Shown here: in pieces, positions 1,736 to 44,062 of the stretch | Position numbering within the stretch: the stretch's first letter is position 1 | Layout of the letters: the number at the start of each line of letters is the position of its first letter | NCBI GenBank assembly: GCA_023515795.1 | Contig: JALGPX010000101.1 | Location: 1-44,062, forward strand | Source of the DNA: Amoeboaphelidium occidentale | Lineage: Eukaryota | Reading direction: 5' to 3' | Length of the DNA: 44,062 nucleotides | Notes under the pieces: model-generated | The model's input: the letters and a program-made list of their open reading frames with translations, nothing else | Told to the model about the DNA's origin: nothing | Databases searched by the model: none | Translations under genes and position numbers: made by a program

Positions 1736-2689
1736 ATGAATCAAGCACAAAATAGGCAAGAGAATGTTGCTAGGCCTGAAGCCGGGGCAGGTAATCCGGA
1801 TGATATTTGGATACTCAGGGAAGGCGCGGCAAGAGCAGAAAAATTCCGTTTGTCAACGCTTCCTGCAGACTTTGACGACGTTGCGGGCTTCATTCGTCAT
1901 ATTAAGAATCACTACAGTGTTGCCTTTGCATCCGTAGAAGCGGACGAAATTGTAATCATTGACAAGGTTGGGGNTTCTGTCCAATCAGAATCGATTTTGT
2001 CGGGATTTGGAAACAGCGACTCAACTCTTCATATCCTCAAAATGAATCCAGCACAAAATAGGCAAGAGAATTTTGCTTTGCCTGAAGCTACAGGAGGAAA
2101 TCCAGATGAGATTTGGATACTGAGAGAGGGCGCGGCTGGCGCAGAAAAATTCCGTTTGTCAACGCTTCCTGCAGACTTTGACGACGTTGCGGGCTTCCGT
2201 CGTCATATTAAGAATCACTACAGTGTTGCCTTTGCATCCGTAGAAGCGGACGAAATTGTAATCATTGACAAGGTTGGGGGTGCTGCTTTGCCTGGGTCCA
2301 TGAAAGTCAGAGATTTGGCTGGAAACAGCGAAGAAAACCCATACCCGGTCAAGGTCAAAGGTTCGTCTTCTTCAGATATATTCTCACTGATATTCAAGGT
2401 AACTAATTCTTTGTGGAAGTCTAATTGAAAGGCGATACGACCGAGGCAATTCACAGGTTTGTTTTCTTTTGGGTCTGGTTCCTCTTCATCCTCGGATGTA
2501 AGTTCTGGGCCCTCGAAAGAGCCAAAGGGAATGGTGAAATCATCTTCGCCATTGTCCCGACCTTTTCCGCAGACCTACACGCACTCCAACAAGCAATCCA
2601 GAAAGAATGGTTCAGACGTAGATGGAAGGGACTTAAGGCGGCGGTTGGTCGCTGTTTCAGAGTTCAAAGATGAAATGTATACTGCATAA
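1736..2689 (+). CDS. Short Crinkler (CRN)-like protein: ubiquitin-like N-terminal domain plus Ser-rich tail; the N-terminal exon is duplicated across the N at 1974
   Basis: IWILREG..AEKF...DDVAGF..HIK.....ADEIVI....LPGS..V..LAGNSEENPYPVKV matches the fungal CRN N-terminal pattern. ATGs at 1736 (copy A) and 2042 (copy B). A predicted intron at 2399-2431 (GTAACT..GAAAG) joins in frame to ORF 2459-2689. Confidence 0.6.
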
Positions 2690-3160
2690 TAACTAAATAG
2701 AAGCATTTTTCGTTTTATTCTCTGTAAACGGGTCAGACTCTGATAAGCAGACGAGCCATTGATCATCAAAGGTGCAAGAACTGTCATTCCCCCTTAATAA
2801 AGACTAGCATATTGAGAATAAAGCCTGTTACCGAACTTAGAATACAAAGAGTCTACTCGAGTGCTTGAGTACAAACTTGGGCAAATTAGTCATACTCCGA
2901 CCCTGGCGAAGCCAGGGGCTCCCGCGNAGGCGGCGGTTGGTCGGTGTTTCAGAGGTCAAAGATGAAATGTATACTGCATAATAACTAAATAGAAGCATTT
3001 TTCGTGTTATTCTCTGTAAACGGGTCAGACTCTGATAAGCAGACGAGCCATTGATCATCGAAGGTGCAAGAACTGTCATTCCCCCTTAATAAAGACTAGC
3101 ATATTGAGAATAAAGCCTGTTACCGAACTTAGAATACAAAGAGTCTACTCGAGGGCTTGA
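2637..3160. repeat. Duplicated ~230 bp block (2637-2868 vs 2928-3160) either side of the N at 2927, with different right flanks
   Basis: Direct sequence identity with a few SNPs. The copies diverge after GCTTGA. Confidence 0.8.
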
Positions 3161-17898: not shown

Positions 17899-19708
17899 AT
17901 GATCAAACTGCGCCACCTTCTTAGCAAAAGCACGAGCAAACTCAAATTCTCTATTGCAAATCCCGTAAACAAAAAAGTTAATTCGGCGCTCATTTTCGGA
18001 ACGACGTTATCTTTTGGCGCTTATCATTTCTTAACGATGGATTCCGTAAAAGCGGCTGATCACATAAACTTCTCGGACGCAGACAACTTATTCAAAGACA
18101 GAAAGACTTGGGACCTCTTCAAATCGCTCGTGGTGTTCCAGCTCTGTCAGTACGACGCTGTTGTGGAGACCTCTCCTGTTCTGCTGAAGTTGGCCTCTAA
18201 GTTCTTTATCACGAGATACATTTCGAACTTTTTAGTAAAGAAGACGTTCTTTTGGCAGTTTTGTGGAGGTGAAGATGAAAAGGAAGTTGCGCCTGTTATT
18301 TTGGATTTATCTGCGCATGGGATCGATTCTATTTTGGACTTGTCGGTCGAGTCTGACCAGGATGCAGATTACACAAAGGATGTAATGGAGCAGATCAAGG
18401 CTTGCATCAAAGCAGCTGCAACGGATGCAAATAATTCTGCTGCTGTTAAAGTCACTGCCTTAGGTTCCACGAAGTCTCTGTTGAATGCTTCTGGTATGAT
18501 GGAGTACCAATGGGATTTGTTTCAGAGCCGCCAAGTCGATGGCGTCATCGATCAGCCGCAGTTTGCAGATCTCATGTCAAAGATGCCTGGTGTTTCATCT
18601 GACACTGACATTTCTGGTTTGTTCAAGAAGGCTGATGTTAAGGGCACCGGAAAAATTACATGGCCTCAGTTTATTGCAGCAGTTAATATTGAAACAACGC
18701 CTTCATTATTCGTTGGCACGGTACCACTTGAAAAACTATCTCAGAAGGAACGTATTTCTGTTTCGGGCAAGTACATTCCCATCTTGAAGCAGGATGATAT
18801 CAAAGAGTTTGGTTTGTTTTCTTCCCGTCTGAAGGAATTATGTGATTATGCTAGTGGTTTGAATGTTTCTCTAATGTTCGATGCAGAGCAGTCTTACTTT
18901 CAATACGCCATCAGTTACATTTCCATGAAAATGATGGCTCAGTACAATAAGTCTGGTCGTGTTTTACTTTANGAAGCAGGATGATATCAAAGAGTTTGGT
19001 TTGTTTTCTTCCCGTCTGAAGGAATTATGTGATTATGCTAGTGGTTTGAACGTGTCTGTAATGTTGGATGCAGAGCAGTCTTACTTTCAATACGCCATCA
19101 GTTACATTTCCATGAAAATGATGGCTCAGTACAATAAGTCTGGTCGTGTTTTACTTTACAACACTTATCAGTTGTACTTGAAAGATTCATTGAAACATTT
19201 ACAATTTGACTATGAAAGAAGCCAGCAGGAGGGTTTCAAGTTTGGTGCTAAACTTGTTCGTGGTGCTTACATGGTATTGGAAAGAAAGAGAGCAAAGGTT
19301 TTGAACGTTCGTGATCCTATTCATGAAAACAAGAACAATACTGACAAGAGTTATTCTGAGGGTTTGCATTACATTATACCAAAAGATAATGTTAAAATCG
19401 TTGTGGCGACACATAACAGAACGTCAATTAATGAAGCGATTTCCATTAGCAAAGGAGGTTCACACATAATGTTTGCTCAATTATACGGAATGTATGATTA
19501 CTTGACCTACAAATTGGCAGATGAAGGATACAAAGTTGCGAAATACATACCGTATGGTCCAGTTGAAGATGTTATCCCTTACTTGATAAGAAGAGCTCAG
19601 GAGAACAAGTCCGTATTGAAATCAAAGGGTGACATTGATGATTTAACATTGATCAAGAAGGAATTAAAACGCCGCTTCTTCCGTAGAAAAGTTGAGCACA
19701 AGGAATAA
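17899..19708 (+). CDS. PUT1: Proline dehydrogenase with an EF-hand-like insertion; apparently split by an assembly duplication at N18972
   Basis: KKTFFWQFCGGED, VKVTALG, DAEQSYFQ, YNTYQLYLKD, KLVRGAYM, VATHN, FAQLYGM, KYIPYGP..VIPYLIRRAQEN. Segment ~18785-18970 is repeated at 18973-19158. Confidence 0.93.
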
Positions 19709-21085: not shown

Positions 21086-24000
21086 CTAATCGTCTACCAA
21101 GTTTATCACGTTATCGTTTACTGCTCTAGGTTGAGGCCTTGGAGGAGTTGCTGAGGATGATCTGATCAGATTTGGTATTGTGTCCGTGCTAGCATGATCT
21201 TTCTTATTGAACGCAGGTGTATAAGGACTAGATGGAACTCTAGGAATATGAGAGCCTTGTTTCGGCTGGTGATTATCGTTAGGTCGTTCCGGAGACGTCT
21301 TGCTTGCTTCAACTTTCTGCATTTTCGGTATGTGGCTGTCCGCAATAGGATGATGCGTTTTCAGATGCTTTCTCAAATCGCTTAACTTTAAATTTAATAT
21401 TGCTTTTTTTCGAGATGCATTTGCATCAAGCTCAGACTTCCGTTTTGTTGCCTCACTCGCTTCAGGGTTTGGTCCAGATGCAGTACCATTCTTCTGGCCT
21501 TCAAAGGGGATTCTGACGAGTTTGTAATTCTTTGGAAAGTCAACAAAATGATAAAGCTCGCAGTGAGATTGCAGTTTCCTAATGCAACTTTCCGTTGATA
21601 AAGAATTAACTCTGATATTGCAACCAGATACCAGACACTGCATCCTAAATATCGAACGTCCGTCCGAGCTAAGGAGCTCCTGTACTCGTATTTCTCGTTC
21701 TTTTACTTTCTTCTTCTGCTCATCTTTTACAATAACATCGTCTTGCTTGTGTTCAGACAAGTGTACATGAATATCCTGTGCTGCATTACCACCCGCTCTA
21801 AATTCTCCACAACCATTGTAAGGACATAAAATGACACTATCTGTATTATTCAATCCAGAAATAAGACGTTCAGGAGCTTTCTGGCCAGAGTGTGAATATC
21901 TGAAATGTTGCAGTAGAGTCTGAAGACAAATTGCAATCGAGCATCCGGTAAAACTCTCCTTGCAGCCAGCAGCCACACATCTTAGATTGATATTTGATTT
22001 TGAAACATCCACAAACTGCCCTTTTGGCGCATTTAATCTGTAATTCGGAGTTGGGCTTGGACTTGGAGTTGCAGATGGCACCGCAGTCGATTCAGCTTTT
22101 TTGGGTGCTTCCATTGGTGCATGTTCAGGTTCTTGTTTTGCAGTGCTGGTTTTTCTTTTAGTCGGTCCTCCGTAAGCATTTTTCCAAACATTCACAAAGT
22201 GATGGTTCAAATTATCCACCGATACATCATTATGCTTCTCATTGTAATGGACAAGTAACATAAATCGGAAATTTTTGGTAGGAGTAAAGTTACTCGAACA
22301 TCTAGGCTCAGGACAGCAAATCAAGTTGTACTTCTGGATAAACGCGTTTGGAAGAGAATGATTCTTGTGAGCGCGAGGAAAATGCGACCTTGTTCCGTTT
22401 AAATTTTTGCCCACGAAACCGCAACCTTGGAACGGACATGGGCAAGGTTGATCTTCGTTTTCAGCATTCAATGCGTCTTCAGTCTTATCATCAGGTTTCA
22501 CTTCCTCCTTTTTGCTTTCTTCAGACTGTTTTTTGATCGAATTCAAGTTACTTTCTCCGGGATGGCGAGCTTTGAGGGATTCGTCTGTCCTAGGAAAATC
22601 CATAAACGCCTTCCTGGTTAGCTCCTGAAGTTTGCGTAATTCAGATTTGACATACATATCGTCCGGCTGATTCATTTCTGGCTTTTCCTCGTTGCTGTGA
22701 CAGTTCATGAGATGAGTATTGTAAACACTCTCAAAATTGTGCGATCTCATGAAAAGAGCTTTACAGCCTGGCTTGCGACATTTTCTCAAACCATATTCTC
22801 TGAGTGTAAATGAAGAAAAGTACTCTGTGGCATGGACGTCTTTCAAGTGCATCAAGAAAGACCTGCTTCCTTTTCCTTTGAAACTACAACCTTCTGCAGG
22901 GCAATTTCGTTTAATTTCATCGGAGACAGCATAAGCCTTATCATTTGTTTTTGATGCACGCTTTTTCTTGCGAAGTTCTTCTTCTTTCAGGATCGGTTCC
23001 CTCGCTAACTTTCTTGCCAACTTTTTGCAGCCCAAAACTGCATCCTCTGAATCTCTTCCTGAATGATCGTTTCGATAATGGGTCATGATGTTGCTTACAT
23101 TGCTTTCCGAAGCAATAAATAATTTCGCACAGTCTAGTTCTGGACAACCATAAAACCCATGGGACGTAAGAAAGGTTATTGAGACCTTTTTGTTTGGATG
23201 GAACTTCTTAAAATGCGCTCTCATATTTGTGTCTGTAAGATCTTTCCGATTGCAANNNNNNNNNNNNNNNNNGCAATAAATAATTTCGCACAGTCTAGTT
23301 CTGGACAACCATAAAACCCATGGGACGTAAGAAAGGTTTTTGAGACCTTTTTGTTTGGATGGAACTTCTTAAAATGCGCTCTCATATTTGTGTCTGTAAG
23401 ATCTTTCCGATTGCAATCATCAAACGGACAACAACTTTTAGACTTTTTCTCTTGTGTTTCCTCCAACTTTTCTTCCTCTTTCTTTTCAATATCTGTGCCG
23501 GTATTTTCGGTAGTTTCATGTGATTTCATATGTGTTATCATCAGCGCCATTCCATCTTTAGTATTTCTAAACACATCGCAACCAGCTATTGGGCAAACAG
23601 TTATTTCGTATCTTTTGCAAAAATCGATGAAAGCGGGATTCTCTTTGTAACCAGGATGCCAGCGACTAAAATGATTTTTAACATACCGAGTGAAAGATGA
23701 CGATATTTCAAACTCGTGCTCGCATAGCGGACATTTAGCCGTTTCCGTCGATGAGATATCATCACCAATTAATTTTTCAATATAATCAGTACTATCGGTA
23801 TCCGTGTCATCGTCATCGAAAGTAGAATCGGAACTATCACCATCATCGAAGTCTAATTCTCCGTCAATCTTCATTTCATCCTCGGCTTTATCAACCTTAT
23901 TATCGAGAACCGTGGAATTTGAGGTGGAAACATTTTCAACAGCACCAGCACGATCTTGACTTTGAACATTTATCGTAGCTGCCTTAACCTCTTGAGGGCG

Positions 24001-24615
24001 ACCTGCTTCAGTGATTTCCTTCTTATCGACCTCTTCGGTCTTTAACTCAGGTCCATCTTTAACAAAATCCTTGACATCGACCGCATTCTTTACTTCTTTA
24101 GCTTCCTTAGCTTCAACACTCTCCGTTGGTTTTAGATCTTTCGGATCGGAGACAGTTCCTTGCCCATCAACATTTGATCCAGAAATTTGGTAAGGCGTAT
24201 TGAAAAAAGTCTCCGACTGACTATAAAATGAGAGCTTAGGCCTTTCCAAAGACTTTTCAGTAGCGCTTATCACTCCAAAGTCATTACACGCCAACAACTG
24301 CAATGTGCCATAACGCAATCTTGTTGCTCCTCGTTCAGGATTCCGGCTAAACACTTTGAACACGTTAAACACATTCTGTTTCTGGAAATCTGGTGGAATA
24401 TTTTCTTTGGCGGATGCGGTAGAACTGGGATGTTCTCCATATGAGTGATTGCAAGACTTCCACTCGCTATCCTTTCGGTGCGATAAATTCCTTTCAGGTA
24501 AAGCAGTCACCGAGACAACTGGTTCAGCTAAGATCAGTCCATGAGACAAAAGCATGTGCATAGATAACGTTTCCCTGCTCTCAAAGGCTGTCGAACAACT
24601 CGCGCAGAATTCCAT
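21086..24615 (-). CDS. Large (~1,100 aa) multi-C2H2 zinc-finger protein with about 12 atypical fingers; interrupted by an assembly gap and duplication at 23256-23272
   Basis: Repeated CPxxGC..HxxxxH units (CPLC, CPIAGC, CPFDDC, CPELDC, CPAEGC, CRKPGC, CPFQGC, CPEPRC, CVAAGC, CPYNGC, CLVSGC). Sequences either side of the gap overlap. Confidence 0.8.
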
Positions 24616-25002
24616 TACGATTCAAAAAAGATCCAAGCCACATCAAGAACAAGTTTCATTTGATAATTACAGAATTTATTGAAAATCTAGTTTNNNNNNN
24701 NNNNNNNNNNNNNNTTTGGCTGATGCGGTAGAACTGGGATGTTCTCCATATGAGTGATTGCAAGACTTCGACTCGCTATCCTTTCGCTGCGATAAATTCC
24801 TTTCAGGTAAAGCAGTCACCGAGACAACTGGTTCAGCTAAGATCAGTCCATGAGACAAAAGCATGTGCATTGATAACGTTTCCCTGCTCTCAAAGGCTGT
24901 CGAACAACTCGCGCAGAATTCCATTTCGATTCAAAAAAGATCCAAGCCACATCAAGAACAAGTTTCATTTGATAATTACAGAATTTATTGAAAATCTAGT
25001 TT
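24406..25002. repeat. Duplicated ~290 bp block (5' end of the zinc-finger gene) either side of gap 24694-24714
   Basis: 24406-24693 and 24715-25002 are nearly identical with scattered SNPs. This explains ORF 24676-24924. Confidence 0.85.
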
Positions 25003-31560: not shown

Positions 31561-31966
31561 TATAAGTGACTTTTCTAAGGAAGAATTTCAGCGTGGTGAC
31601 TCATGCTTCAAAAGTGATCCAACAAGTAGAAAACATTTTTGAGTCACAATAGCTTGCGATGATCTCCCTTGCAAGTTCGATGTGAAGTCGCAGTTGAATG
31701 AGATCGACCTGTCTGTTTCAGGTAGCGTCTCAATTGATAGCTGCCTTCTTTGATCTTTTGGTGTTTCATGATAAGCGCAATTATGATAGTGACTGCTTCA
31801 TTGATCAGATCGCCTTAGTGATTAAGCTCCTACTTTAACCGTAATTTAGAATGCATTTCATTACGTTTCTGCGTGTGAACTTGTCCATCAAGCTTTTGCA
31901 GTTTCCTGATTGCGACAAGCCACGAGGCGCTTTTGTTTCTTAAGGCGTTCCCCTATTACAGCGATT

Positions 31967-33529
31967 ATGGACGATTATTTTCAGTGCTGCCCTGAGGAAG
32001 ACTGCGATTTTGTAGCGCGTGGTCAGGGCGCCAAGAAGAAGGTTCGCCTGCATTTCAGTAGAGTGCACAAGAACAAAACGATTCCTAATGATTTATTACT
32101 TCACTCTGAGAATGCTATGGAGTGTCCCTTCGAAGGGTGCACCGTGAAAATGTGTGGCCTCAACAAAATTGCTAATCTTCGGAATCACTACGAAACTGTT
32201 CATGCTGGACATGAATTACCGCAAATATTAAGAAGGGTCCGGCCACAGAAGAGTACTGCTGATGTTGATCCATTGGAAAGACTTTGGAAGGGTTGTGTTC
32301 CTGTTCCGGAAGCTAAATTGAAGAAGATTCCTGTTTTATCAAGAAAAGTAAGGCTGTCACAAGAGGAGGACGAGGATGATGATAAGAATTCTGATATTGA
32401 AACCGCGATTTTGGAACGGAAGCCACGTAGAGGCGTTTTGGGTTTGGGTGCATTAGTTACAAAGAGCGCAAGTGATAAAGAGAATGGTGTCAAGTCTTCA
32501 TCATCCTCTAGCTCAGAGATTTCATTCGAAGATGACGAGAATGAAAGTGACTCCAGTGATAACAGCGTTTTGGTTGAATTCGCAAAAGGAGGGCTGCCAC
32601 AGGCACAATGGAAACAGGATTTAAAGAGTAATTCCTCTGAGGACGATGATGAAGATACGGAGTTGAAGCCGGCTGCTCCGTTTCAGCCAGAATCGAAAGT
32701 AAGCGAGACATTTTTTATTGAAGATACCGATGAAGAGCAGGCAGATTCTGGTGCATCTATAGTTTACTCTGGATCAGATGCCGATTTAGCTCCTTATGAA
32801 AGTGAAATGGAATTCTTTGATTCCTTGTTTAAAGATAAAACGCCAAAGAAGCGAAAGAATCAAAATACTAAAGCGCGAAAGAATGGCAATAGTAGGAAGA
32901 AGAAGTTGTCGAAAGATCTTGATGATATGATACCAGAGACTCCAGTGGTACAGACCACTACAGTTATTTATTTACCAGATAGTCCTAAAGAAACTCCAAA
33001 GCATGAGAAGCCCTGTTATCTTTCAGAATCGAGCAACACTGATGAAGAGCAAATTGAAAAGAAACCGCTCATACAGCTGAACAGAAGAAAATTGAAGCGA
33101 CCAAATTTAAAGAACTTTGATGGATCGTTTGGAGATGATTCAAAGCATGAAACAGATGGCTTAGTTCAAACAAAGATTGGAAACTTCTTTTCTCCTGTAA
33201 AGCCTCCAAGTGAAGAGCAGTCAAAAAGGCTTTCAAGTAGAAGAGATTCTTTGCTGGGAACTGATGCACCAGAAACTCCAACAAAGAAACTTGATACTGA
33301 GTCTTCATTTAAACAGCAACAGAACACCTCCTTAACAGAAGCTGAACTTCAAAAGGAGGAAATCATACCAAAAATCAAGGCTAAGTCTATGTCGTGGCGG
33401 GCTTACACGAAATCGAACACTACAAGCAATAACGTAAAAGTGGTTGGCGAGATTAGTCTTTTATCAGATTATGAAGAGAATTTTCATGAGAATACTACTG
33501 GGAGTGAAATCATAGTGCTATCCGACTAA
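31967..33529 (+). CDS. Paired atypical C2H2 zinc-finger protein with a long acidic/Ser-rich disordered tail
   Basis: CCPEEDC..HFSRVH..CPFEGC..HYETVH at the N-terminus and NLS-like PKKRK / RKKK. Confidence 0.75.
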   Translation: MDDYFQCCPEEDCDFVARGQGAKKKVRLHFSRVHKNKTIPNDLLLHSENAMECPFEGCTVKMCGLNKIANLRNHYETVHAGHELPQILRRVRPQKSTADVDPLERLWKGCVPVPEAKLKKIPVLSRKVRLSQEEDEDDDKNSDIETAILERKPRRGVLGLGALVTKSASDKENGVKSSSSSSSEISFEDDENESDSSDNSVLVEFAKGGLPQAQWKQDLKSNSSEDDDEDTELKPAAPFQPESKVSETFFIEDTDEEQADSGASIVYSGSDADLAPYESEMEFFDSLFKDKTPKKRKNQNTKARKNGNSRKKKLSKDLDDMIPETPVVQTTTVIYLPDSPKETPKHEKPCYLSESSNTDEEQIEKKPLIQLNRRKLKRPNLKNFDGSFGDDSKHETDGLVQTKIGNFFSPVKPPSEEQSKRLSSRRDSLLGTDAPETPTKKLDTESSFKQQQNTSLTEAELQKEEIIPKIKAKSMSWRAYTKSNTTSNNVKVVGEISLLSDYEENFHENTTGSEIIVLSD

Positions 33530-40366: not shown

Positions 40367-40515
40367 ATTGAGGCGTATGATCTTTTGAATTGAATCAGGA
40401 CGTTGGCGGCGCGAAGGTCGACAATTGGAAATCCAAACTGATAGAGTTTCAGCTAGGAAACTAACATCAGCTCATCTTTTAATACATATTTATTGATCAT
40501 TTTTACTTGAATTCT

Positions 40516-43500
40516 TTAAATCAAATAGTTCATTTCAGATATTTCATAGGTATTGTTGCCTTCATTCGGTACAGGAGCAATAAATGGGACAAGTGCATCT
40601 TGTGAGCTCCAGTAAATGGAGTTAAACATTCTCCAATAGCATTCGCGTACTTTACGTGCTGGATGAAACAAGCCTTGAATAACATACAATGCAATGATTC
40701 CACCACCAAGTGCAACTCTTAAACCTTCAATCGCGTCATTAAAAGCCAAATGAATGTGTGCTGTTGTTTCAAAGATATTAGGCCAGACAAAGTTTAATAA
40801 GTGATGAAGAACATCCTCACGATCTGCAGCAAAGCAACCAAGAGCTAAATGTTTGATTGCGGAACATGAAGTCTGTCTATGAACCAAATCTCGATCCATC
40901 AGTGCATCTTCAAGCAGAGGTGCAATCGCATATACATAATCTTTACAAACATCGCCAACATACTCAAAAGTAAAAGCCAAAGCTTTTAAAACACCATTCT
41001 GTACATTCAGTTCTGGAGTGCGATATTCATTCATCAAAGCAGGCAATACAGTGAATGGTGAACAACTTTCTGCAACAATAGCAATGGCGATAGTGGTACA
41101 TAGACGGAGCTGTCTTTCTTGGACTTTGAGGTTATTCAATAAGGTCACAAGAACATCTTGAGGGCCGATGGCTTTGGAAATGTGTCCAAAAGTTAAAATA
41201 GCAGCTCTGCGGATAGACTTTCGAGGAGCTTTCAATGTTTCCAAAAGCTCAAAACAAATACGCATCCATTCTCGAGCAGACACATGCTCATGACCTCTCT
41301 CAGCAATTTTACCAACCAAGTCGATAGAATGTTCCTGCACTTTTTCGTGCCTATTCTTCAGAATTGGTGTTAATCTTGGAAGCAAGTCCTTAATTGGTGG
41401 TTCCATCTTTTGCATTCCTACAGTGTAAACAACACCTTTCAGTCCAACCAAAATTGAAGCCAAGACTTCAGGGTATTCTTCTCCAAGATTCTCATAAAGT
41501 ACTTTACCAAAGTTAATCAAGACAGCTTCTTGGTCACAATCAATTAGGACTGGAGCTAGTCTGCCAATTAATTCTGCGGCTTCTTGTCTTATTCTGGAAC
41601 TTTTGTTATTCAATCTCCACAGAAGCAGCGCACAAATATTCTCCAAGTATGGCAACATTCTTGAGCCAATACTGCCAAAGATTGTGCCAATAGCATCCAA
41701 CTGATTGCGATAGTCGTCCGACTGAATGTTTTCAAAAACATAGATTAAGCCGTCAACCATTAATTCTTCTAAACGACGATCATTCTTCAAATCCGCAACA
41801 CCCATATCACCAATGATGACATGTAGACAATCCAGTGACATTTTCCTAAAGCTTTCTTGCTCATCTTTCAAAATTGGCACCAAGTATGAAATTATTCTAC
41901 GCGAACCAACTCTTTTTGCCAAGTACCAAGTCGTCTCAACAACTTGTTTGTAATTTCTACGATCCACTGCCATGCGACGAATCCAAAAGTTATCGAAATA
42001 CGGCCTGACCATATCTTCAATAACATGATTTTCAATCCCTTGAGTTTGAGTAATTTGCTTCACAACTTTCAAGACAATCTTCTTCATTTCATCATCAGGT
42101 GAAGCAAATTCTCTCATTACAACAGGAATAATTCTCTTACTATATGCTGAAGCGAATTCCATATCCATCAAAGGTATAATCATTCCGATAGCTTTCAAAA
42201 ATGCTGCCAACGCTTTTCCTCTCATTTTCCTGACACCTTCATACAACGGTTTTAAAATTCCTTCAAACGATTCGAAGCCATAAGGATAAGAACTTTCAGC
42301 CAACGAACTGAGAGCTAAGGCAGTCATTATTCTAACTTTTTGATTATCATCCTCAAGACCAACTTTGATTGCATCAACCAATTGGCTAAGATAAGGAAGT
42401 ATACCACAACCCAGCAGAATACTGATCTGTTGCACAATCTTTACACCAGTATGACGTGCCTGCCATGATTTCTTACTTTTACATACAGCGCGGATAAAAT
42501 GAATGACTGAATCAACTCCTAAAGCGGATGCTACAACAGAAAATGCACGAGCTGTGGTATTTCTCACAAACTCATCAACATGATCAATATCAGGGCGCAT
42601 TACAGACACCATCGTAGCCAAACCGACAGCCTTACTCAAGTTACTAATGATTTCTCTGCCTTCGATTCTAGCGTAGTAATCTTCGTCAACCAACATTGGC
42701 TCGAACACAACCAGTATCTTGTGCACATAGGGATTAACTTCAGTCTGCAATTTGAATATCATCCTGTCAGCAACTTTAACCAACAAATGACGTTCCTTTG
42801 CGTCTAAGTGCGGAGACATAAGCAAAGGCAAAAGCGCATCAAAGATCATCTTGGCCCCGAACTCCTGAGCTTTGTCAGTCAATAATTTCAAAGACTGTTT
42901 TCTTATCGCAGGCATACCATTCTTAATACGCAACAGTAAACGCAATAACTTTCTTTCCTTCAATTCCTCCAAAGTCATGGAATCTTCATCCTTCTCGTTA
43001 TTCAACAGCTTAGCAAAGAATTGAACATCTTCCGGTTTAAACAGAGGCAAAGATTCATCACCGCCACCCAAGTTCGGAACCAAAGCCGTGCCAGCCTCAG
43101 CGGATGCCGCAATGTAAAACTCTGAGCCTTCCTTTTCCTCAGCCTTATATTCCTTCGCCTTAAAAACAGGTTTATAATCAGCTGGCGGTTCAACGATGAC
43201 GTAACCTTCTTGTGGAAGCATGGCGTCCAATTCTTCATCCGTCAAGTAACGATTCCTCCATTCCATTTCCCTTTCGATCGGCGTTTTCGATGTGACGGAG
43301 GATGCCAACGAAGGGGCAACGGATGCGCCGTCCTCAGCCGTTTCCATTGCGCTTTCTTCTCCTGCGTCGCCCTTCTTATCCCATCGTGAGGTGCGTTCCT
43401 TTCTTTTTAATTCTTCCAATTCCCTCCCGATCTGCGCTTCCTTGACGTACTCTGCGTAGGATGCATTGCGGTCAGGCGATAAAACTCTTTTGTCTCTGTA

Positions 43501-43590
43501 CGTTGAGACTTCTTTTCTATTTCTGTCCGGTTCCTCGTCTCCCGGTTGGAGCGGAGGTTGTAATTGCTTGTGAAGATCCCACCTGGACAT
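40516..43590 (-). CDS. SF3B1: U2 snRNP splicing factor SF3B1 (Hsh155)
   Basis: SRWD ULM motifs, [19 protein letters not shown] repeats [44 protein letters not shown] and NVQNGVLK. First ATG at 43590. Confidence 0.97.
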
Positions 43591-43608
43591 TTGCAATTGT
43601 GATTGAGC

Positions 43609-43755
43609 AAACTCAGATTGTTGAGTTTAAGTAATCAGCACTTTTGTGCTACGTTATTCAGCACTAGACTGAAAAACGCGGAATTCCAATTACTCAACTC
43701 GGTATATGTAACAAACGCTATAAAATAGCAATGTACTCCGTAAGACCCTCCGCAA
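43609..43755 (-). ncRNA. Putative omegaRNA scaffold / element 3' end of the Fanzor
   Basis: Lies immediately 3' of the nuclease stop and contains at least five stems: AAACTCA/TGAGTTT, AGCAC/GTGCT, CGTT-TTCAG/CTGAA-AACG, GCTAT/ATAGC, and a 12-bp stem 43623-35/43689-700. The G-U pairs form only on the minus strand. Confidence 0.6.
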
Positions 43756-43972
43756 TTAAGCATTGGTTGAGCTACAAAATTTGTATGATCTTGAGAATTT
43801 TTCTGGTCTGACTCCATTGGATGCATTCACTGAGATGAAAACTTCTCTGATGTTCACTGCAGCATTGACATCTCTGTTCCAAAAGATGTTGCAGTTATCA
43901 CATCGTTTCACGTGCCACATTCCCCTCTTTGGTAACGGTTCCTTGCATTTACAACAAAGCATGCTTGTTCTG
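43756..43972 (-). mobile_element. C-terminal part of a eukaryotic TnpB-family (Fanzor, Fanzor1-like) RNA-guided nuclease; truncated by N43973 and the window edge
   Basis: RTSMLCCKC (TS-xx-CxxC), RCDNC and WNRDVNAAVNI (RuvC-III), plus a C-terminal RPEKFSR motif. Confidence 0.82.
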
Positions 43973-43973
43973 N

Positions 43974-44062
43974 AAACTCAGATTGTTGAGTTTAAGTAAT
44001 CAGCACTTTTGTGCTACGTTATTCAGCACTAGAATGAAAAACGCGGAATTCCAATCACTCAA
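43974..44062. repeat. Second copy of 43609-43697 (two SNPs) after N43973
   Basis: Direct identity starting AAACTCAGATTGTTGAG. Confidence 0.85.

Follow-up and report, generated by a model that had tools for sequence, protein, structure and literature searches.

The right end of a Fanzor element stands immediately above the start codon of SF3B1 at the end of a contig from Amoeboaphelidium occidentale (JALGPX010000101.1), and this arrangement raises the question of where the element stops, what its RNA guide would recognise and how an essential gene is still expressed from beneath it. The window analysed here is the complete 44,062-nt record, which is gene-dense with short introns; SF3B1 is its last minus-strand gene, and the record ends within a multicopy repeat at an N overlap (Table 1). 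Our best explanation, to which we assign a probability of about 0.7, is that a multicopy Fanzor1 right end lies at 43623, 32 nt above an intact SF3B1 ATG, at a site that is empty elsewhere, and that its guide would be derived from the flank. Within this account the boundary, the other copies, the empty allele and the intact SF3B1 frame are direct observations.

Table 1. Features at the junction between the Fanzor element and SF3B1, in window coordinates
Feature	Position	Strand	Basis or remark
SF3B1 coding sequence	40516..43590	minus	single ORF, 1024 aa, intact
Host stretch between element and SF3B1 ATG, 32 nt	43591..43622	minus	same stretch carried by the empty allele
16-nt host motif	43600..43615	minus	15/16 kept in the diverged X6 allele; 2-nt spacing shift relative to the ATG
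AACAAT, target motif or possible target-site duplication	43617..43622	minus	CAAT recurs at right junctions of other copies
Predicted guide	43602..43622	minus	from SpuFz1 scaffold and guide sizes and Fanzor1 TSD absorption
Right end of the element, with the predicted 78-nt omegaRNA scaffold	43623..43700	minus	fold energy; end common to other copies
Predicted alternative hairpin, element 3' end paired with host flank	43600..43637	minus	competes with the closing stem; would hide the guide
Fanzor1 ORF end, last 71 codons and stop	43756..43971	minus	PF07282; intact zinc finger and RuvC-III aspartate
Single N and 89-nt duplicate of 43609-43697	43973..44062	strandless	assembly overlap at record end

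The Fanzor fragment and its relatives

An earlier note on this DNA had placed a Fanzor right end against SF3B1, and the PF07282 C-terminus at 43971-43756 bears this out. The 71 codons in the window encode a CxxC...CxxC zinc finger and an NRD motif with the RuvC-III aspartate. The closest relatives of this fragment (4 among 8 candidates; three named A. occidentale) are 94-97% identical to it, and five members of the family are already listed in Table S2 of PMC10711439, where a Fanzor HMM retrieved them. An alternative RuvC-II glutamate precedes the zinc finger by six residues in 4/4 relatives (EFRTSMLC); the corresponding codon of the window lies just beyond the N and so outside the visible copy. 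RuvC-I reads DPN in the relatives, with the catalytic D and the P present and the G absent, and D311 is invariant in 58/58 aligned relatives; the published Fanzor1 motif is 'near exclusively' DPG. The WED-domain TDG motif is found in the fuller gene calls P0003 and P0125 and is absent from the shorter P0002 and P0004.

A profile of 58 sequences recovered SpuFz1, GtFz1 and PpFz1 at E values of 1e-55 to 1e-43, against 5e-13 for Fanzor2. The predicted structure of P0003 (pLDDT 85.5) gave Fanzor1 chains in the first 7 places of the fold comparison, the best being SpuFz1 with a TM score of 0.62-0.65. We class the window element on its sequence as a Fanzor1, nearer to that group than to either Fanzor2 or TnpB. 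Four relatives are partial or look interrupted, one with a C-to-Y change in the zinc finger. The end of the ORF is nearly identical among copies and intact in the window, the rest of the ORF lying outside the record; a 152-nt stretch of it is identical in a contig of sequencing run X1 at ~11 times unique depth, which serves as a rough guide to copy number.

Several observations concern Fanzors more widely. The 1366-aa relative P0126 seems to combine two Fanzor1 ORFs in a single protein call, the ORFs being separated by a repeated stretch, and runs X1, X3 and X7 contain a second, more diverged Fanzor family that matches only the zinc-finger/RuvC-III stretch (window 43847-43893). A main-text literature search found nothing pairing Fanzor with Amoeboaphelidium or an aphelid; the supplements of Fanzor papers do name many other Fanzors for Amoeboaphelidium (38 and 112 mentions). 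A scan of viral sequences returned no Fanzor relative, seven short viral pattern matches of at most 26 nt alike being taken as chance, and the prokaryote genomes scanned gave 0 matches. A metagenome scan with SF3B1 as query found relatives only 53-62% identical, none of which carried the element end.

Element boundary, other copies and the empty allele

The boundary was mapped on contigs of 6 sequencing runs (X1, X2, X3, X6, X7 and X8) out of 16 listed. In X1, the element end is common to contigs of 295 to 29,667 nt, which then continue into at least 6 different flanks, leaving the window at 43623 or 43624, and a 32-nt contig at about twice unique depth leaves it at 43617. Junctions of other copies in X2, X3, X6 and X7 fall at 43617, 43621, 43623, 43625 and 43629, so that departure points are mostly 43623 and lie within 43617-43625 with the one exception at 43629. 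Empty-allele contigs from three studies (X2, X6 and X7) follow the SF3B1 side to 43622 and then pass into an identical 30-nt sequence unlike the window. Because other copies mostly depart at 43623 and alignment of the empty allele reaches 43622, the end of the element lies at 43623, 32 nt above the SF3B1 ATG. The earlier note had put this end at 43609, which is 14 nt off; the empty-site allele that it had proposed to look for is present in the contigs.

Over the 6 runs the empty allele was found in 3, the filled allele in 1 (X1), and 2 (X3 and X8) were uninformative. The filled junction in X1 is carried by a 12.5-kb contig at unique depth that extends only 25 nt onto the element side, under our bar of 31 nt, and X1 may be the source of the window itself. 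No empty-allele contig was seen among the 6 records of X1, and there may thus be nothing left to cut in that run. X1 is also without cover at 43728-43799 and X8 is without cover throughout, neither gap counting as evidence, and the SF3B1 contig of X3 halts at 43593. The strains bearing empty alleles are ~2.5-3% diverged, and their alleles show 3 differences from the window, individually unplaced, whose position within ~30 nt of 43622 is deduced; these may spoil matching by a guide. The Fanzor insertion at this site appears to be recent and strain-specific. The locus provides filled and empty alleles that occur naturally in related strains of a single small eukaryote, the right end being mapped and the guide predicted.

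Two X3 contigs deserve separate mention. The 3122-nt contig, which by arithmetic runs from ~40472 to 43593 without a loose end, covers just SF3B1 and looks transcript-like; as a single run whose kind is not on record, X3 lies under the threshold for even a weak hint, and the contig is given no weight here. The second, of 2.5 kb, starts within the final 56 nt of another copy of the element and continues into the flank of that copy. Should X3 consist of RNA, transcripts may run across element ends.

The right junctions follow a pattern of a conserved AAAC, 0-4 variable bases and then CAAT in 5/6 single-contig junctions (the window, X1 43624, X6 43623, X7 43623 and X7 43625), the exception being X2 43629. 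Against a background of 0.031 per junction, CAAT at 4/5 junctions besides the window has a probability of ~5e-6, a count that leaves out X3 43617 (unread), 5 loose ends, the 32-nt X1 contig (AACAA and a base other than T) and 4 consensus rows that each combine 2-4 contigs, of which two agree with the pattern, one departs from it and one is unread over the motif. The sites counted are not all independent, since some flanks recur between runs. As the empty allele remains aligned to 43622, the CAAT-bearing motif is likely to be host target sequence, and it may represent a duplication or a one-sided target.

This ragged end and the CAAT offer a lead to the transposon that carries the window element. 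Variation of 0-4 nt in the right junction is a poor fit to the fixed end of a TIR/DDE carrier of the Mariner, Sola2 or MuDR types, the left end lying outside the record, and no transposase domain was found in the 16 related proteins scanned. In the Fanzor1 elements MCi-2 and MCi-5 of Mucor circinelloides (Bao and Jurka 2013, PMC3627910), a fixed AT-rich motif opens the right flank as CAAT does here, the TSD patterns being ATAATT plus 5-6 free bases for MCi-2 and ATTTAT for MCi-5; their fuzzy end is the 5' end and TSDs flank both sides, whereas the window element is seen from the right side only, with CAAT at a variable distance. Variable-length duplications are described for the Helitron2-type Fanzor1 elements CRe-1/2/3 and for Replitron-1 of Chlamydomonas reinhardtii (PMC3627910, PMC10288648). 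In Replitron-1 the right end is fuzzy and a duplication with the target motif comes after it (PMC10288648), a resemblance to the window in junction pattern only, with other motifs; unlike these carriers, the window element has no HUH or helicase gene in view.

The predicted omegaRNA and its guide

The 78 nt at 43700-43623 fold at -27.7 kcal/mol (z -5.2), and 0/1000 shuffles were as stable. In the predicted closing stem 43700-43688 is paired with 43636-43623, internal hairpins being enclosed, and the stem ends on the boundary derived from the copies, which share this structured non-coding right end and then enter variable flank. Covariation gave no support to the scaffold, with 5/10 copy variants keeping the predicted pairing against 37% expected by chance, and the element right end had no match in Rfam above the gathering score. 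The closest known counterpart is SpuFz1, the best profile and fold match to the window family, whose Spu-1 element in Spizellomyces punctatus is likewise multicopy and carries a scaffold of ~75 nt after its stop codon, up to the point where the element stops. Spu-1 is bounded by 30-nt inverted repeats, terminates at a fixed point and uses a CATA TAM, whereas the right end of the window element varies by 0-4 nt and leads into CAAT, and its left end is outside the record.

In SpuFz1 a 75-nt scaffold is extended by 14-15 nt of guide that the variable 3' flank supplies (Saito et al. 2023, PMC10432273). On this model, the guide of the window element would be 43622-43608 if begun after the closing stem, or 43616-43602 if AACAAT joins the scaffold. 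In either case it would consist of adjacent host DNA, at about -32 to -12 from the ATG, and would match the empty allele. The earlier note had proposed as guide the last 18 nt before the ATG, which do sit at 43608-43591 as it had them; those guide coordinates are wrong because the boundary is 43623 and not 43609. Its argument that a 3' flank guide from the SF3B1 side would fit the empty allele is of the right kind; by analogy with known systems, however, such a match is ordinary rather than special to the SF3B1 site, because the published rule covers every Fanzor insertion.

The choice between the two registers depends on the role of CAAT. Should AACAAT be a target-site duplication absorbed into the scaffold, with CAAT as the TAM, the guide would be 43616-43602. 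The CAAT at 5/6 right junctions agrees with this, as do the published inclusion of the TSD in Fanzor1 scaffolds and the published Fanzor1 TAMs, which are AT-rich and 4-5 nt long (PMC13565253). A TAM and full target at the filled right junction would nevertheless lead the filled allele to cut itself, and the 0-4 nt linker variation, seen at right junctions only, would move the guide register, so that we consider this arrangement doubtful. GCAA precedes the insertion site in the empty allele, and we lean slightly towards a guide that begins at 43622, its TAM lying upstream, rather than towards CAAT as TAM, because a CAAT TAM with a guide from 43616 would make filled alleles self-cut.

In the mechanism that we favour, the element would prefer sites where CAAT lies 0-2 nt into the right flank, and it would join them with a slightly ragged end. 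Its right end would yield the 78-nt omegaRNA scaffold and a ~15-nt guide from adjacent host DNA, and a Fanzor1 protein from this or another copy would load the RNA and cut the element-free site, a target expected after excision or in a heterozygous cell. Repair would then copy the element back, as shown for bacterial TnpB. In TnpB homing by IS200/IS605 and IS607 elements a right-flank guide matches the element-free allele, as predicted here (PMC13565253), and by analogy a flank-derived guide matching the empty allele could favour retention or spread of the element (PMC10432273, PMC10711439, PMC13565253). In the passages of PMC13565253 consulted, empty-site cleavage with restoration is listed for TnpB and IscB only and nuclease activity alone for Fanzors; the present pair of alleles allows asking at a real site whether Fanzors cut and restore.

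Whether the guide would work at this particular site is less assured. The last hairpin of the earlier note is longer than it had described, with predicted arms at 43637-43622 (the scaffold 3' strand) and 43615-43600, and the 3' arm is host sequence. The closing stem forms with a probability of 0.99 when no flank is present; adding the guide lowers this to 0.55-0.75 and the full leader to 0.38-0.50, in which last context the alternative hairpin is the lowest-energy fold. Only 4/545 control flanks pair equally strongly and 6/545 leave the guide as little unpaired, a rarity of ~1% that is overstated and serves as a hint only because the hairpin was chosen after the fact. As the guide can pair with its own scaffold, folding suggests that it is probably weak at the SF3B1 site.

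These folds are one reason to consider that the element is a tolerated passenger, its copy decayed or its guide folded away, with no cutting or homing here. The pairing of the guide with the scaffold 3' strand and the accompanying fall in closing-stem probability are expected on this account, as are the interrupted-looking relatives and the lack of an empty contig in X1. However, the lowest-energy fold of the scaffold with 15-21 nt of flank retains the closing stem, the end of the ORF is intact and differs little between copies, protein could be supplied in trans, and the post hoc choice of the hairpin weakens the control comparison. We rate the passenger account at somewhat below even odds. 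The locus goes a little beyond known systems in three respects: its pair of filled and empty alleles, the ragged junction with CAAT of a carrier as yet unclassified, and a guide that is predicted to be self-silencing.

SF3B1 expression and the end of the record

The SF3B1 start codon, which the earlier note had set at 43590 on the minus strand, opens a 1024-aa ORF and coincides with the database gene call, likewise of 1024 aa. This ATG is sound because the gene call agrees, the N-terminus is like that of several relatives, and a diverged X6 allele matches the coding side to 43590 and diverges at once beyond it. An upstream SF3B1 coding exon, an alternative raised in the earlier note, was rejected because relatives such as P0007, P0013, P0015 and P0036 start at a similar point and the X6 allele alters the upstream spacing by 2 nt; the SF3B1 relatives P0050 and P0022 carry ~100 more N-terminal residues.

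The claim that the insertion leaves no ordinary promoter proved overstated. The 16-nt motif retained by the diverged X6 allele occurs once in the window, is non-coding and host-derived, and still stands below the insertion at -26 to -11; its conservation makes it a likely core promoter or leader element. Promoters here also appear small because head-to-head ORF pairs in the window are only 118, 168, 205, 239 and 406 nt apart, as judged from ORF-based starts. Even so, 32 nt is short for an SF3B1 promoter, and native upstream sequence has been displaced by the element. In the favoured account SF3B1 would most likely still start from the host bases below the insertion, with or without element transcription, and more upstream promoter sequence would have been pushed away. 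The proximity to SF3B1 shows that very little host sequence may suffice for an essential gene in this compact genome, and by itself it implies no new mechanism.

As a side observation, the 10-mer TGCGACAAGC is found at 31911-31920 (+), 56 nt above the ORF at 31967, and again in the empty allele ~35-44 nt above the SF3B1 ATG, just past the insertion point. It could be a promoter motif pushed away by the element; one match in 44 kb is within chance.

A different possibility is that SF3B1 has come to depend on transcription of the element, with a Fanzor or omegaRNA transcript reading through the 32 host bases into the frame. The two share an orientation with only those host bases left between them, the native upstream sequence is displaced, and no ATG intervenes between 43762 and the SF3B1 ATG, a short frame from 43763 stopping at 43635. 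Stable structure of 78 nt in a leader would hinder scanning by the ribosome, which weighs against such a transcript, as does the persistence of the conserved host motif at -26 to -11, and we regard dependence on read-through as unlikely. A more elaborate version, in which the element sits in the SF3B1 core promoter, has cut off the upstream motif and now supplies transcription, while one RNA serves as omegaRNA or leader with the guide-scaffold hairpin as a switch and loss of the element harms the host, seems decidedly less probable still. Among the literature matches listed, none described a Fanzor in a host promoter.

Artefact offers another explanation, since the record ends in a multicopy repeat at an N overlap and the X1 contig, uncovered at 43728-43799, bridges the junction by just 25 nt; the junction could then be an assembly mis-join. 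Yet the 12.5-kb X1 contig was assembled separately and has the same junction at unique depth with no alternative upstream contig, the AAAC-linker-CAAT form is that of other copies, and the break point coincides with that of the empty allele, which together make a mis-join very improbable.

Barely credible is an element that ends at 43609 with the last 18 nt as guide, or one spliced from the 5' UTR: a duplicate does start at 43609 and X1 has CAG at 43601-43599 where the window has CAC, but 43609-43622 is present in empty alleles and missing from other copies, the element end has no AG (the sole AG of the window's 32 host bases sits in GAG), and the two intron-like stretches in the window, read by eye, are ~36 and 47 nt, far below the length of a Fanzor element. 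The removal by splicing suggested in the earlier note thus has no support. The difference at position 43599 in X1 places its CAG 8 nt above the ATG, and the diverged X6 allele likewise has CAG, 7 nt above its ATG; a 3' splice site of a short leader intron is possible, as is chance.

The second copy of 89 nt does begin, at 43974, with the equivalent of 43609, as the earlier note observed, and takes in 14 nt of host flank, but it does not mark the element boundary. Near-identical duplicates of 89-334 nt flank 8/8 N runs in the window, and for this reason the duplicate at 43974 is read as an assembly overlap with an arbitrary start. Other N joins have produced false tandem duplications at 615-1587, 1669-2285, 2636-3160, 18786-19158, 23112-23416 and 24406-25002, and one N-join duplication breaks a proline dehydrogenase gene into ORFs 17899-18984 and 19061-19708. 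Variants at 43661 and 43669, one in an X1 contig and one in the window duplicate, each break one scaffold pair and together would restore it, which suggests that the assembled element copies are mosaics. The Fanzor1 ORF end in the window may similarly be a mosaic of several copies.
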